Origin: Escherichia coli
GTDB lineage: Bacteria > Pseudomonadota > Gammaproteobacteria > Enterobacterales > Enterobacteriaceae
Reading direction: 5' to 3' (one strand)
NCBI GenBank assembly: GCA_002099625.1
Contig: GCA_002099625.1_4857.1
Length of the DNA stretch: 64,000 nt
Position numbers and translations under genes: made by a program. Of this stretch, positions 3,353 through 33,190 are shown in pieces. How positions within the stretch are numbered: position 1 is the stretch's first letter; each line of letters begins with the position of its first letter. The notes beneath the pieces were generated by a model. That model was not told the DNA's origin. It saw only the letters and a list, made by a program, of their open reading frames with translations, and ran no database searches.

Positions 3353-4145
3353 TATCGTCCTTGTATAGGGAGTCGTAAGGGCTGTTAGTGTTCATGTTAA
3401 ATTCTTGTTCTACTTCAGGATGTTGTGAAAGGGAATCCAGAAAGATCGGTTGATATCCACCCTCTGTACGTTTCTTTATCATTTCAAGGAACGACTTTCC
3501 ATCAGGAACATCAGGTGTTGATACTAACACCGTGTCAGAGACTGTCGGTAAACGCGTGCAGCCTTCAGTGTTCAGCTGTAGTACCGCGTCTGGTGCGATG
3601 TGTCTGATGTTAGGAAACTTCAACGCGATCTCTTCCATCTTCGCTTTCAATGCATCACCGTTTAGCAGCGGTACAGTCGGCGTCATATAAGCGAACTCAA
3701 CATCTCGATCGGCCACATAATCGCGTAAGTGTTTTCGGGCTGCTACTGTAGCAGAAACTTGCTCTTTATTAGCGTTTATGCCGATGCCATTAAAACGTTT
3801 TAGTTTGTCTAAGAAAACGTTAATGTTTTCCTTCGGCATAGGGCGTGGGAACTTACGCAGAAAATAAAGTTGTTCGCGGCCAGGCACCCAGCTGAGCACC
3901 CAGCACGCTTTTAGTGTACGGAAGATATCACGATAGGGTTTCTTCTCTTGAAAGAAATCCCCTTTTAACTGGCAACGGTCTTCAACCATTGCCTGGAGTT
4001 GGGTGGCTACGTTGGCCATTGCCGACCAGGTGATAAGACGACTACGGTGTTTACCCACGTAGAGACGTCCACCTGTAATACGACGAGACTGTGGATGTAC
4101 TATTTTGACAAACTGTAATCTTTTCTGCTTGCGTGGTTTTAACAT
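3342..4145 (-). CDS. hypothetical protein
   Basis: 267-aa ORF; SD AAGGAG upstream. Confidence 0.55.
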   Translation of the reverse strand: MLKPRKQKRLQFVKIVHPQSRRITGGRLYVGKHRSRLITWSAMANVATQLQAMVEDRCQLKGDFFQEKKPYRDIFRTLKACWVLSWVPGREQLYFLRKFPRPMPKENINVFLDKLKRFNGIGINANKEQVSATVAARKHLRDYVADRDVEFAYMTPTVPLLNGDALKAKMEEIALKFPNIRHIAPDAVLQLNTEGCTRLPTVSDTVLVSTPDVPDGKSFLEMIKKRTEGGYQPIFLDSLSQHPEVEQEFNMNTNSPYDSLYKDDNDA

Positions 4146-28057: not shown

Positions 28058-28534
28058 TTAAAGCTCCTTTACCATATCCTGGTATTCAGTTCGGAATCCG
28101 AAACGTTCATAAAACGCAATAGCACGGTCGTTATTACCGAGCACGTTAAGCTGCATCCATGCGCAGCCTTTTGATTTGCCATAGTTCTCTACGGCTTCGA
28201 TCAGTTCATGGCCAACGCCTTGTGAACGAACCGATTCATCTACAAAAAAGTTATATACCCAGAGGAAACGTTGTCCCTTTTTGGTGTAGCCAAAGGTGAT
28301 GAAGCCAACAGCCACACCACGGTCATCAACGGCGCAAGCGCACAGCGTACCTTCACCCCAAACCTCCTCCAGTTTTGAGATTTGATTAAACCCTTCACGA
28401 CCGTTTAAGTCGGCGAGTTTTATTTTCTGATCGTCGTATAACTTGTTGTGTAGTCCTAACAAATCCGCGTAGTATTTCTTTCCATACGGGGAGTTGGGCT
28501 TGGTGACAAAAACGATTTTCATCACACCCTCCAA
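28058..28534 (-). CDS. GNAT-family N-acetyltransferase
   Basis: Motif A RSQGVGHELIEAV and motif B AIAFYERFGF; 158 aa. Confidence 0.65.
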   Translation of the reverse strand: MEGVMKIVFVTKPNSPYGKKYYADLLGLHNKLYDDQKIKLADLNGREGFNQISKLEEVWGEGTLCACAVDDRGVAVGFITFGYTKKGQRFLWVYNFFVDESVRSQGVGHELIEAVENYGKSKGCAWMQLNVLGNNDRAIAFYERFGFRTEYQDMVKEL

Positions 28535-29016
28535 TACATCTGGTAAGCACCTACCTTAAAGCCAGCTTTGTCGTAGAGCGACTTCGCGGCAGCGTTACCG
28601 GCGTTCACGGACAGGTGAACAACTGTACACCCTTTTTCCGTTGCGGATTTCTTTACCGCATCCATCAACGCGGTGCCGTAACCTTTACCACGTGCGCTGC
28701 TGCTAACGACCAGTGAGGATACCGACATCATCGTCACACCCTCTTCAGTCATCGTGCGGTATTGCGCAAAGCCATACAAGACACCGTCGTCCACGACCGC
28801 CAGTAAACGACCCCGGAAGCGCTCGGCTAACGATTTAGCCGGCGTAAAACGGACATTAATACCCGTCTCTTTTCGATAGCTTTCTATTTCGCTTTTGTCC
28901 AGCTCGTTATAAAGCGCGAGGATATCTGTGGAATATTTCCTGCCGTTAGCCGTGTCTGGCCCCACTATGGTAATAATCTTCATCAGTTCACCTCGGCCAG
29001 CGATTGCTTCGTCCAC
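28522..29016 (-). CDS. GNAT-family N-acetyltransferase
   Basis: Motif A ARGKGYGTALMDAV and motif B KSLYDKAGF; 164 aa; tandem with 28058..28534. Confidence 0.65.
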   Translation of the reverse strand: MDEAIAGRGELMKIITIVGPDTANGRKYSTDILALYNELDKSEIESYRKETGINVRFTPAKSLAERFRGRLLAVVDDGVLYGFAQYRTMTEEGVTMMSVSSLVVSSSARGKGYGTALMDAVKKSATEKGCTVVHLSVNAGNAAAKSLYDKAGFKVGAYQMYWRV

Positions 29017-30116
29017 TCCATTAGACCCTCCGCCACGCGTACCAACGCCGTGGTGAATGCGTCTTCCATCGCCATTGCATTACGGTAACGTAACGTGGCC
29101 TCCTTCAGCTCATCCCCTTCTAGGTTCTTAAGCTCGGACTTCATCGCTTCCACTTCTTCGTAAATGCCGGTGTAGCCCACAACACGGTTCTTTGTTCCAC
29201 GTGCAGCAATAGATTTGATAAGTGCTTCCACAGCCTCTATTGCTTTCCCACACTGATGCATATCCAGCGATTTAATGGTTTCACCATACTCACCGTCACG
29301 CGCAATTGCCCAACTGACCTTACCACTATGGTGCTCAACCACAACGATATTTCCAGGGACAGGAAAAGCTTCCACCTTTTTAAAGGGATCGATGATGCCA
29401 AGCAACCCAGCAGCACGCTTAACTGCCCAGTTCGTGGACTTGCTGATTTGTTTTAAGCCTGGCCCTTCGAATGCTTTGCTTTTCTTCAGAGCGGTGCGTG
29501 TGTAAACCGTGTACTTTTGCACGACGCCTTCGTACGCATTTGTTTGTTTAGAAAACTTAACACACGCTTCAAAATCGGGTCGATCTTCAAAGCAAACTTT
29601 AGACGTCCAGCTGCTCGTGTGAACGTCGACCGCAGCGAGTGTTTTGTGGTCATCCAATAACGACATTCGTGCTTTGAGCTTATTGAGCTTACGCTCCATG
29701 AAAGCAGCTTTCGAAGTTATTTCTTTCAAACGGTCGGCTTGTTCTTTCGCTAGCGCTTCCGCGAAATCGTAAAAGCGTAATGCGAGCTTTTTCGAAAGTT
29801 TACCCGCGCCCTTTGCGGTTGCGCCTAGTCCAGCACCCACTAACTTTCCAGTACCTTTAACAGCTTTCGCAGTAATGCGCCCTGCTGCGCGATGGATGCC
29901 AGCCCGCGGGTCAGTATCAGTCATAAACTGAGCACGCTCCATCGCTTCGCGCGATTCACGAGCAACCAACATATCTTCACCGTCGTCGGTTAAGCACCAA
30001 CGCTGACGAATCGCGCAAACCGCAGGGAAGTCGGGCTTAACTCCCAGACCTTCGAGTGCGACCAGGCGATCGTAGTCGTCAGTCAGGACTTCTAAATCTA
30101 AATCGAGCGTCGACAT
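28983..30116 (-). CDS. hypothetical protein
   Basis: 377-aa ORF with K/A/G-rich segment. Confidence 0.5.
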   Translation of the reverse strand: MSTLDLDLEVLTDDYDRLVALEGLGVKPDFPAVCAIRQRWCLTDDGEDMLVARESREAMERAQFMTDTDPRAGIHRAAGRITAKAVKGTGKLVGAGLGATAKGAGKLSKKLALRFYDFAEALAKEQADRLKEITSKAAFMERKLNKLKARMSLLDDHKTLAAVDVHTSSWTSKVCFEDRPDFEACVKFSKQTNAYEGVVQKYTVYTRTALKKSKAFEGPGLKQISKSTNWAVKRAAGLLGIIDPFKKVEAFPVPGNIVVVEHHSGKVSWAIARDGEYGETIKSLDMHQCGKAIEAVEALIKSIAARGTKNRVVGYTGIYEEVEAMKSELKNLEGDELKEATLRYRNAMAMEDAFTTALVRVAEGLMEWTKQSLAEVN

Positions 30117-30429: not shown

Positions 30430-31029
30430 TCATAATAAGCACAAGCTCTCAAGCCACAGATGTCCTTCAAGCGCATGGTGGTAACAAGGAATACCACACT
30501 GCTTAGCGTATTTCACGCCCATGGCAGTACCGCCGGTCGGATTACCTTGTTTATCTAAAGGCGCAGAGTAATAAACTGCGTCTACAGGCGTTGCTAAATC
30601 ATCGCCCATAATTATATTCAGATTACGGCCATGAAGCGCCCAGGCGAACTCCTGGAGCTTTTCTGGCGCGGGATGAAGCTTACCTACTATCTCACGATAG
30701 CGGTCATCCTGAGGGATTACACGGAACTCTACGTTGGGATTCTGTTTCTTGAGCCAGAGCTTTTTCTCATCGGGTAGGTAACAAATGAACTCATCATCCC
30801 ACACCACTTTCTTGCCGGTATCTTGGTCGATTGTATTCGCCCACTGTCGGGCAAATCGGAATTGCAATTGGTCTGGACCACACCAGCAGCCGCCAGAAGA
30901 AAAATGAATCGTGTAATCCTTGGCGTGCAGCGCATTAAACCCACGTAACAATCGCATGTACATTTCAGACATGGTATCTTCATCAGTCTTCCGAGAACCG
31001 ATTACCGCAATTTTATAAATCTTTTTCAT
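30430..31029 (-). CDS. SLOG/DprA/LOG-like Rossmann-fold protein
   Basis: IAVIGSRK...HFSSGGCWCGPD pattern (GSR plus SGGxxG) typical of DprA/Smf, LOG and SLOG families; 199 aa. Confidence 0.45.
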   Translation of the reverse strand: MKKIYKIAVIGSRKTDEDTMSEMYMRLLRGFNALHAKDYTIHFSSGGCWCGPDQLQFRFARQWANTIDQDTGKKVVWDDEFICYLPDEKKLWLKKQNPNVEFRVIPQDDRYREIVGKLHPAPEKLQEFAWALHGRNLNIIMGDDLATPVDAVYYSAPLDKQGNPTGGTAMGVKYAKQCGIPCYHHALEGHLWLESLCLL

Positions 31030-31062
31030 GGACTTACCTCCTATACGGAGTGGACGATTCGT

Positions 31063-31106
31063 AAGAAAAAAATAAATACCTACCCTCGCTAAACGGGCGA
31101 GGGTAG
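31063..31106 (-). terminator. intrinsic terminator
   Basis: Stem taccctcgc/gcgagggta, A-run on plus strand upstream. Confidence 0.7.
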
Positions 31107-31110
31107 TGTC

Positions 31111-31761
31111 TTAAACAAACACACGATAACGAAAACCGCTAAGCTTCGAGATAGTCACTTCTTCTAACAGCTTACGCCCCCAGAAACCAGCCAAGTCGTA
31201 TTCCAGACCAGGCAGCGTTGTCTTGGTTAAGTCTTGGCCGATATGGTACGGTAGCGTAATACGTGTGCGCGATTCGTAAACAAACGATTCACATTCATAG
31301 ACGAGGATGTATCGATCGGTCAGGATGTCGTACTCTACGTGGCATTGCGCGGGGTTTTCCCACGCCTTACTTACAACGATGCCACGTTCTGCACACGCCG
31401 ATTCAAAACTGGCCATTGCAGGTTCAGACCATACGCGCAAATCGGCCGGTTTACCTTTCGACAAATCAAACCACGTGAGATGATCAGGTCCCAATGTGAT
31501 TATATCATTTAAGCTCAATTTGCGGTAACGCACAACCACATAGTCATCTGGCTTACTCTTATTAGTCAGCAAAGCACTTACACGACCGTCCGGTTCCGGT
31601 GGACCATAACTCTCCACACGGATACGTTCTGTGTTCAGGGGCGTATAAACGGTTTCAGCATTAAAAGCATTGACTAAATCGAGCAAGGTTTGACTATGAT
31701 GGTGGTTAAAGTCAATAACAAAAGACATGCCTCGCTCCTGGTATTTGATTAAGGGGGTCAT
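31111..31761 (-). CDS. hypothetical protein
   Basis: 216-aa ORF. Confidence 0.5.
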   Translation of the reverse strand: MTPLIKYQERGMSFVIDFNHHHSQTLLDLVNAFNAETVYTPLNTERIRVESYGPPEPDGRVSALLTNKSKPDDYVVVRYRKLSLNDIITLGPDHLTWFDLSKGKPADLRVWSEPAMASFESACAERGIVVSKAWENPAQCHVEYDILTDRYILVYECESFVYESRTRITLPYHIGQDLTKTTLPGLEYDLAGFWGRKLLEEVTISKLSGFRYRVFV

Positions 31762-31818
31762 AATACTTCACAGGAAAATAATAAACAGTATAGGGGCCGA
31801 AGCCCCTATACGCTGTGT

Positions 31819-32208
31819 TTAATAATCGTACAAAGGATACCGTGCGGAAATTTCTTTACCTACCCAAAAAGTTAACTGGTGGGTATTAACGCTGCGGTGT
31901 GTTCGTACTGACGGGACAATTTTCGCTTTAACTTTCGGCGAACATGTACCGGCATCTATTGGCTGGTACGTCTTGCGCTTTGTGTTAACGAGATAAAAGC
32001 CACCGCCCGGACACAGTTCAGAACGCCCGTAGTTGACCACGGCAAACTCACCCTTCTCCACTGTCACGACTGGTTCATCTTTGTCGCTAAATTTTACAGG
32101 TGCGTCGGTTTCCCACATCGGTTTATACTGCGGGAAGTCCTGAATGGTAAAGGCGTTTACTGGCGCAGTAACGCAGAGTATAAACACAGCTAATACAGCA
32201 CGCATCAT
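31819..32208 (-). CDS. secreted protein with Sec signal peptide
   Basis: N-terminus MMRAVLAVFILCVTAPVNA-F; 129 aa. Confidence 0.5.
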   Translation of the reverse strand: MMRAVLAVFILCVTAPVNAFTIQDFPQYKPMWETDAPVKFSDKDEPVVTVEKGEFAVVNYGRSELCPGGGFYLVNTKRKTYQPIDAGTCSPKVKAKIVPSVRTHRSVNTHQLTFWVGKEISARYPLYDY

Positions 32209-32704: not shown

Positions 32705-33190
32705 TTAGACGAAATGACCTTCTGCCATCGAAAGAAAAATGGGAACGCTTTCGGCGTAATGTGTTAAAAGCTTTTCCTCCGGTGGCGTGTGTGACGAAAT
32801 AACATTGTAGTTCGTCATACGAAAATACCGTTGGCCGTCAGCAGCAATATACCATCGGTCAATCTGGAAGCCTTGTTGGTGAAAGAATCCTAGCGCGGGA
32901 ATGTTGGTCGGGTGAACACGACAGCTGACGTGTTTACGATCGGAGTTCTGCTGAAGATACTTAAGCATAAATCTGCCGACACCGCCCCGGCGCGATTCTT
33001 CGGGCACAACCATATAGACCAAATGGCCAGGTTCCCATGCCATGATTCCCCGCACGATATCATCCTCAACAAACATCGTGAGTTTAATAGGCTCCTCACG
33101 GATACTGTTTAAGTCGCGCACCCATTCAACCAGTTCAGGATAAACATTCGCGGGAATCTTATCCTCGACCACATTAATAACAAGCATCAC
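32705..33190 (-). CDS. GNAT-family N-acetyltransferase
   Basis: Motif A SRRGGVGRFMLKYL and motif B ALGFFHQQGF. Confidence 0.55.
   Translation of the reverse strand: MMLVINVVEDKIPANVYPELVEWVRDLNSIREEPIKLTMFVEDDIVRGIMAWEPGHLVYMVVPEESRRGGVGRFMLKYLQQNSDRKHVSCRVHPTNIPALGFFHQQGFQIDRWYIAADGQRYFRMTNYNVISSHTPPEEKLLTHYAESVPIFLSMAEGHFV

Follow-up and report, generated by a model that had tools for sequence, protein, structure and literature searches.

The DNA-processing domain of DprA/Smf (Pfam PF02481; structures 3MAJ, 3UQZ and 4LJK/4LJR) is a known relative of the phage protein described here. DprA binds ssDNA, forms dimers and, through contact with RecA, loads the latter on ssDNA. Bacterial DprA typically carries an N-terminal SAM domain and a C-terminal DML1/winged-helix domain, and single-domain DprA also exist in some bacteria (PMC3950713). 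Two ssDNA-binding signatures, G-[STA]-R and [FLY]-x-x-R-[ND], were proposed for DprA by Wang et al. and were contrasted with the P-G-G-x-G-T-x-x-E signature of LOG (PMC3950713). In the case of H. pylori DprA, a thymine base inserts into a pocket, where R52 acts as the gate arginine and F140, R143 and N144 hold the inserted base; the R52E mutation cuts ssDNA affinity 315-fold and R143E 173-fold (PMC3950713).

Other SLOG proteins have been described in quite different settings. The LOG (Lonely Guy) cytokinin-type phosphoribohydrolases (PF03641) carry PGGxGTxxE with its catalytic Glu. The SLOG domain of ThsA is the sensor of 3'cADPR in the Thoeris effector (7UXS). ShosA, the DprA-like antitoxin of ShosTA, carries a SAM domain as well as additional C-terminal elements, and its partner is a PRTase toxin. 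The viral YAcAr/DUF2493-type SLOGs, among them gp153 of Erwinia phage RAY, belong to the same superfamily, are phage-encoded and are often fused to NADAR, Macro or DUF4326. SLOG domains were found in 31% of jumbo phages, with fusions to Macro, NADAR, DUF4326 and SF1 helicases, and viral SLOGs were predicted to detect or break down immune signals derived from ADP-ribose (Iyer et al. 2022). The RAY 'DprA' gp153 localises to the phage nucleus (Prichard et al.).

The whole stretch analysed, 64,000 nucleotides of contig GCA_002099625.1_4857.1 in an Escherichia coli assembly (hereafter the window), comes from an SPN3US-like jumbo phage (Seoulvirus), which is phiKZ-related and nucleus-forming. A region of 4 kb is 97.5-98.5% identical to Proteus phage 7, to the Salmonella SPFM and SPLA phages and to other Seoulvirus genomes (~240 kb). 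The SLOG gene is 96.2% identical to its SPN3US counterpart, YP_009153386.1, of which it is the ortholog, and 96-100% identical genes are found across Seoulvirus genomes. The counterpart is the 92nd CDS of SPN3US, a numbering that was checked by finding the major head protein at CDS 75. RefSeq and Pharokka-annotated genomes already name the gene "DprA-like DNA recombination-mediator protein". The gene, its family and the DprA-like naming are thus already in databases, and both functional hypotheses are already in print: recombination and immune-signal degradation, which the initial annotation had suggested, are those already published. A search of the literature for an experimental study of PHROG 768, the family of this protein, or of SPN3US gp92 found none. 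What is added here is a motif-level test of membership, the recognition of gp153 as a NADAR-like plus SLOG fusion, and a reading that reconciles both published views.

The ORF is complete (Table 1) and, to judge from its relatives, it is a real gene, far beyond chance: the 199-aa protein matches PHROG 768 with E 1.8e-47 (residues 4-189 on profile positions 3-170 of 191), its orthologs in jumbo phages of Salmonella, Proteus, Escherichia and Erwinia are 58-99% identical, and the family profile recovers 1,822 cluster representatives (E ≤ 1e-3; 50% identity clustering of the library). Its GC content is 46.8%, compared with 48.0% for the window. In eleven Salmonella phage records (LR535901, LR535903-LR535908, LR535911-LR535913 and LR535917; phages SPFM1, 5-10, 12, 14, 15 and 20) the gene is 97-99% identical and lies in 7-10 aligned pieces. 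These broken copies yield odd 'hypothetical proteins' that match short stretches only (P0026, P0027, P0029, P0030 and P0032), and the fragmentation looks like the product of frameshift-rich assemblies rather than biology.

A terminator-like hairpin, on the strand of the gene, separates it from its upstream neighbour. The nearby genes comprise PHROGs without assigned function, an internal head protein and three GNAT-type acetyltransferases (PHROGs 3810 and 7861). Since these neighbours include the PHROG 2497 gene, the SLOG gene lies among a mixture of head-protein, acetyltransferase and unassigned genes and not in a replication/recombination module. The three GNAT genes lie within ~2.5 kb on either side of it and are too diverged to be mutually detectable by BLAST at E 1e-3. 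Further upstream, a second hairpin with a perfect stem (GTATAGGGGC...GCCCCTATAC) scores as terminator-like on both strands.

Table 1. Positions in the window of the SLOG gene, of its motifs and signals, and of surrounding features (residues numbered in the 199-aa protein)
Feature	Position	Strand	Remark
GNAT-type acetyltransferase gene	28058..28534	minus
GNAT-type acetyltransferase gene	28522..29016	minus	adjacent to the preceding gene, overlap 13 nt
Internal head protein gene	28983..30116	minus	377 aa; PHROG 2497 'internal head protein', E 7e-89; two genes downstream of the SLOG gene
SLOG gene	30430..31029	minus	199 aa
Stop codon TGA	30432..30430	minus
C-terminal helix end W-L-E-S-L-C-L-L, residues 192-199	30433..30456	minus	conserved only in the jumbo-phage clade
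G166-G167-T168 loop after strand 4	30526..30534	minus	corresponds to DprA S-G-[ST]; aligns with HpDprA SGS; invariant in 36/36
DprA motif 2, [FLY]-x-x-R-[ND]: L132-H133-G-R135-N136, pocket helix	30622..30636	minus	aligns with HpDprA F140-L-A-R143-N144
H119-P120 'HP' motif	30670..30675	minus	family-specific; H in 32/36 and P in 30/36 relatives
Glycine loop after strand 2: S45-G-G-C-W-C-G51-P-D53	30871..30897	minus	corresponds to DprA S-G-x-A-x-G-x-D; aligns with HpDprA SGGALGVD
Peptide HFSSGGCWCGPD, residues 42-53	30871..30906	minus	quoted in the initial annotation
IAVIGSRK, residues 7-14	30988..31011	minus	quoted in the initial annotation
DprA motif 1, G-[STA]-R: G11-S12-R13, loop after first core strand	30991..30999	minus	aligns with HpDprA G50-T51-R52 (hhalign)
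Start codon ATG	31029..31027	minus
Shine-Dalgarno AGGAGG	31037..31042	minus	7 nt 5' of ATG; direct sequence reading
Terminator-like hairpin	31080..31106	minus	10 bp stem with 7 GC pairs, T-rich tail; consensus scan, pattern match only
Upstream gene	31111..31761
Hairpin with perfect 10-bp stem	31788..31811	both	between genes 31111-31761 and 31819-32208
Gene	31819..32208
GNAT-type acetyltransferase gene	32705..33190	minus

The protein itself has no Pfam match even at E ≤ 10 and no NCBIfam match. Two profiles were employed, A1 from close orthologs and A2 from 36 diverse relatives. Searches of PDB sequences with the single protein or with A1 returned noise only; A2 found DprA chains and nothing else, at E 7e-5 to 5e-4. 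Individually, 11 of the 36 relatives match DNA_processg_A (PF02481), with E values reaching 3.7e-6 and the scores shown (20.7, 23.0 and 19.1 bits) below the cutoff of 29.6, three match LDcluster4 and two YAcAr; a match to LOG (Lysine_decarbox, PF03641) or YpsA was found in none of the 36. The protein does not match the YpsA (DUF1273) and YAcAr (PF10686) family models. In an hhalign comparison of A2 with the single E. coli Smf the N-terminal half alone was aligned (76%), and for this reason a DprA profile was built from four DprA-domain sequences, rebuilt from printed PDB alignments, together with E. coli Smf. Against this profile A2 aligned over 152 columns, the whole domain, with 96.6% probability and E 6e-10. 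Homology to the DprA domain is thus seen only at the profile-profile level, where that probability applies.

The AlphaFold2 model, obtained with 21 orthologs (pLDDT 93.6, pTM 0.90), shows a Rossmann-like β-α-β core with a terminal helix. The predicted structure therefore keeps the SLOG fold, whose loss would have spoken against the assignment in the initial annotation, the conserved pocket residues are present, and the protein falls within the SLOG superfamily (Smf/DprA-LOG Rossmannoid fold). In structure comparison DprA scores above LOG and above the ThsA SLOG domain, to which no sequence-level match was found; the phage protein carries neither SIR2 nor another effector domain. In the BFVD the YAcAr/DUF2493-type SLOGs occupy ranks 21-33 with TMq of 0.40-0.47, against 0.62-0.74 for PHROG 768 proteins. 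At the family level the protein is DprA-like and not LOG-like. Unlike typical bacterial DprA it is a single domain without SAM or DML1/winged helix; nevertheless, missing accessory domains do not exclude DprA membership, as some bacterial DprA are single-domain too. Taken together, the comparisons point to a divergent, minimal, single-domain and phage-specific DprA-like branch of SLOG, and not to a bona fide DprA.

This assignment finds support in the motifs. Both peptides quoted in the initial annotation are present, though the loop described there as GGxxG is actually GGxxxG (G46-G47-C-W-C-G51), followed by P-D. Among the 36 relatives, G11 and R13 of motif 1 are invariant and S12 is kept in 35; in motif 2, H133, R135 and N136 are found in all 36 and L132 in 30. 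S45, G46, G51 and D53 of the glycine loop are invariant or nearly so, and most relatives read S-G-x-A-x-G-A-D. The loop after strand 4 reads P-T-G-G-T-A-M-G, in which the position three after the Thr is Ala or Gly in 36/36 and never Glu, so that the LOG signature PGGxGTxxE is not matched. By these readings the DprA base-pocket signature is intact and the LOG catalytic signature missing. Of the proposed SLOG/DprA/LOG-like character, the SLOG fold and both DprA motifs were borne out, while the LOG part fell away with the absence of PGGxGTxxE and of any LOG Pfam match in the 36 relatives. Two features set the phage family apart: H133 is an extra, family-specific invariant inside motif 2, and the HP pair was not found as conserved in an alignment of five DprA sequences. 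The invariant histidines could be catalytic. The C-terminal end, W-L-E-S-L-[RC]-L-L in the 21 close orthologs, has W192, L193, R197, L198 and L199 nearly invariant there, but beyond this clade the family does not conserve it; it may serve the clade as a motif for interaction or targeting.

RAY gp153 (KU886224.1 113629-114510) was found to be a two-domain protein, with a NADAR-family domain at residues 16-115 and a short SLOG domain at ~161-293. The former was detected by a search seeded with YbiA, at E 0.6 in a single pass and E 8e-28 after iteration. By its domain architecture, gp153 is a NADAR-like plus SLOG fusion rather than a canonical DprA. It is not an ortholog of the window protein, which has no N-terminal NADAR-like domain, and is more distant; its SLOG part matches the latter weakly (phmmer E 1.5e-3 in a small database; BFVD rank 22). 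We take the soluble signals of host immunity to arise, and to be sensed, in the cytoplasm of the host. In view of the nuclear localisation of gp153, an architecture that has been used to argue for the processing of soluble signals sits with the phage DNA.

Candidate partners were located in SPN3US. The protein YP_009153510.1 (NC_027402.1 187951-189444), a 'hypothetical protein' in RefSeq, is a full-length homolog of the UvsX-like gp150 of RAY (phmmer E 5e-47), from which it follows that SPN3US-like phages have a RecA/UvsX-family recombinase; the RAY UvsX query detected it, and a query with E. coli RecA detected no RecA homolog in SPN3US. UvsY is absent from SPN3US-like phages. A stand-alone ORF at 194358-195209 (YP_009153518.1) matches the N-terminal domain of gp153 with E 1e-7 and the YbiA-seeded profile with E 2e-3, and a separate Macro-domain protein is encoded at 174459-174959. 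The NADAR-like ORF, the Macro protein and the SLOG gene would be a 'split' version of the fusions seen elsewhere.

The family is very common: by tblastn at E ≤ 1e-5 it occurs in 421 of ~50,700 phage records, which include rV5-like, T4-like, Acinetobacter, Pakpunavirus-like and jumbo phages. The 146 best representatives comprise 86 stand-alone proteins of up to 240 aa, 35 of 241-1000 aa and 25 of more than 1000 aa. A Pfam census of 43 multi-domain relatives found NADAR in five, an SF1 RecD/PIF1-type helicase in three, DUF7831 and 2OG-FeII_Oxy_2 in two each, and DUF4326 and Macro in one each. The NADAR domains of P0064, P0079, P0101, P0124 and P0147 were confirmed by the search seeded with E. 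coli YbiA, a genuine NADAR, which added P0087, P0120 and P0134. Both 2OG-FeII_Oxy_2 matches are weak (E 2.7e-5). A query with E. coli AlkB did not detect these two fusion proteins and ten further fusions have no informative Pfam domain, for which reasons the AlkB-type link stays weak.

At the upper end of the size range, 11 representatives exceed 3,000 aa. P0068, from the crAss-like metagenomic contig Ga0496408_001495 (10001-22441 of the piece examined), has 4,146 aa with the domain at ~3941-4099, in its C-terminal part; about ten further representatives of 3,000-5,700 aa carry the SLOG domain as well, mostly near the C-terminus. The P0068 gene directly follows the crAss ring and muzzle genes, a location which we take to be the crAss-like block of virion-packaged, ejected proteins. 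A scan of the giant fusions P0068 and P0100 found no other Pfam domain.

To look for a conserved operon partner, 80 viral loci were compared; 70 of them were usable and represent 48 lineages at 70% identity. As none of the neighbours is shared by more than 7 lineages, guilt-by-association gives no answer here. The recurrent neighbours are a ClpP-like protein, the RNR small subunit, PhoH and a methyltransferase-like protein with an NPPY motif; a Macro-like neighbour in 4 lineages is a weak, sub-threshold match. RNA ligase 2 is encoded immediately before the SLOG gene in several T4-like genera, with a 1-nt overlap in Enterobacter phage AS6 (3006-4555 of the stretch examined), and the same adjacency is seen in Klebsiella JD18/Roth20-type phages. 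T4-like phages with this pair already have UvsX and UvsY. The adjacency, of which we found no discussion in the 2022 survey, hints at an RNA-repair or accessory-region association.

The explanation we favour begins with the pocket. The SLOG protein keeps the DprA base pocket, with the gate arginine in GSR, a hydrophobic platform and an Arg-Asn pair on the L-x-x-R-N helix, and the SGGxxxGxD and GGT loops. Such a module would grip single-stranded nucleic acid with one nucleotide or base inserted in the pocket, as H. pylori DprA does, and in the nucleus-forming SPN3US-like phages it would work on phage DNA during replication or recombination. One possible role is to assist the UvsX-like recombinase, as an accessory factor that binds ssDNA or as a mediator; another is to direct base-repair hydrolases, for instance the NADAR-like or Macro proteins, to nucleic acid. 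Since the DprA pocket holds a single ssDNA base, its conservation fits a nucleic-acid ligand and a free-nucleotide ligand alike, and the choice between them rests on context. The nuclear localisation of gp153, the UvsX homolog, the helicase fusions, the weak AlkB-type matches and the crAss context of P0068 lead us to favour a DNA-directed module. Against this reading count that gp153 is not an ortholog, that T4-like phages with UvsY also keep the SLOG gene, and that the invariant histidines could be catalytic. The ORF, the fold, the DprA homology, the conserved motifs and the fusions of relatives are shown here; that the protein binds ssDNA, where it acts and with which proteins, we infer. We give a non-LOG, DprA-like module that grips ssDNA by base-in-pocket contact and acts on phage DNA about an even chance.

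The main competitor is the prediction of Iyer et al. 2022 for viral SLOG domains, extended to this protein. Its targets would be soluble immune signals or toxins derived from ADP-ribose (cADPR isomers, ADPr-phosphates) and produced by TIR, SIR2 or ART defences of the host; it would sense, sequester or degrade them, with the SLOG pocket binding the adenine-ribose part of the molecule. Fusion of relatives to NADAR, Macro and DUF4326 fits this proposal. However, the sequence-level affinities all lie with the DprA clade and none with ThsA-type sensors or LOG, the LOG catalytic Glu is absent, and gp153, the one experimentally localised jumbo-phage protein with the NADAR-like plus SLOG architecture, is found inside the phage nucleus with the DNA. 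Moreover, the SF1 helicase fusions and the weak AlkB-type matches are explained more simply by a nucleic-acid substrate. We regard the soluble-signal proposal as rather doubtful, with a modest chance of being correct. A LOG-type phosphoribohydrolase, which would cleave the N-glycosidic bond of nucleotides and so, for instance, deplete or remodel their pool or release a modified base, shares the SLOG fold. It was rejected on the motif evidence, the family having no Glu at the T+3 position, and neither PGGxGTxxE nor a Lysine_decarbox match was found; DprA is also the better structural match, and the sequence searches led to no other family. The absence of the catalytic Glu leads us to infer that the protein is not a LOG-type glycosidase, and the chance that it is one seems to us very slight.

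The DprA-like character of the family also recalls the antitoxins ShosA and PsyrA, which alone were matched by the family in PADLOC. The phage protein could accordingly be imagined as an anti-defence mimic of ShosA/PsyrA, with their ssDNA binding and RecA engagement, that neutralises a ShosTA/PsyrTA-type toxin-antitoxin system once infection has deprived the host of its antitoxin. In PADLOC the family matches these antitoxins over no more than ~45 residues at the N-terminus (E 1e-3 to 6e-6), and for the window protein itself no match was obtained. It also lacks the SAM domain and C-terminal parts of ShosA, and its gene has no PRTase toxin as partner and no conserved neighbour. In a nucleus-forming phage the protein may sit in another compartment than the host toxin. 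We consider the antitoxin mimic quite improbable.

A narrower version of the DNA-directed reading, which we consider unlikely though worth stating, is that the SLOG module belongs to a phage system for undoing ADP-ribosylation of bases, or base damage of another kind, in phage DNA, and that it is the half that targets the lesion or the ssDNA. A nucleotide flipped out of ssDNA would be caught in the pocket and passed on to the other half, an enzyme of the NADAR-like, Macro, DUF4326 or AlkB type. RAY gp153 and many metagenomic proteins have both halves in one chain; in SPN3US-like phages they are encoded by separate genes. NADAR acts on ADP-ribosyl-guanine, and DarT on thymidine in ssDNA. Such a system would reconcile the DprA-like signature with the ADP-ribose-type fusion partners and the nuclear localisation; it would suggest that the phage counters defences of the DarT type, which ADP-ribosylate DNA.

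Two incompatible functions are in circulation for these proteins, that of a recombination mediator in databases and that of an ADP-ribose-signal enzyme in comparative-genomics papers. If the DNA-directed reading holds, thousands of annotations would be given a foundation, and a defence of phages against ADP-ribosylation of their DNA would become conceivable.
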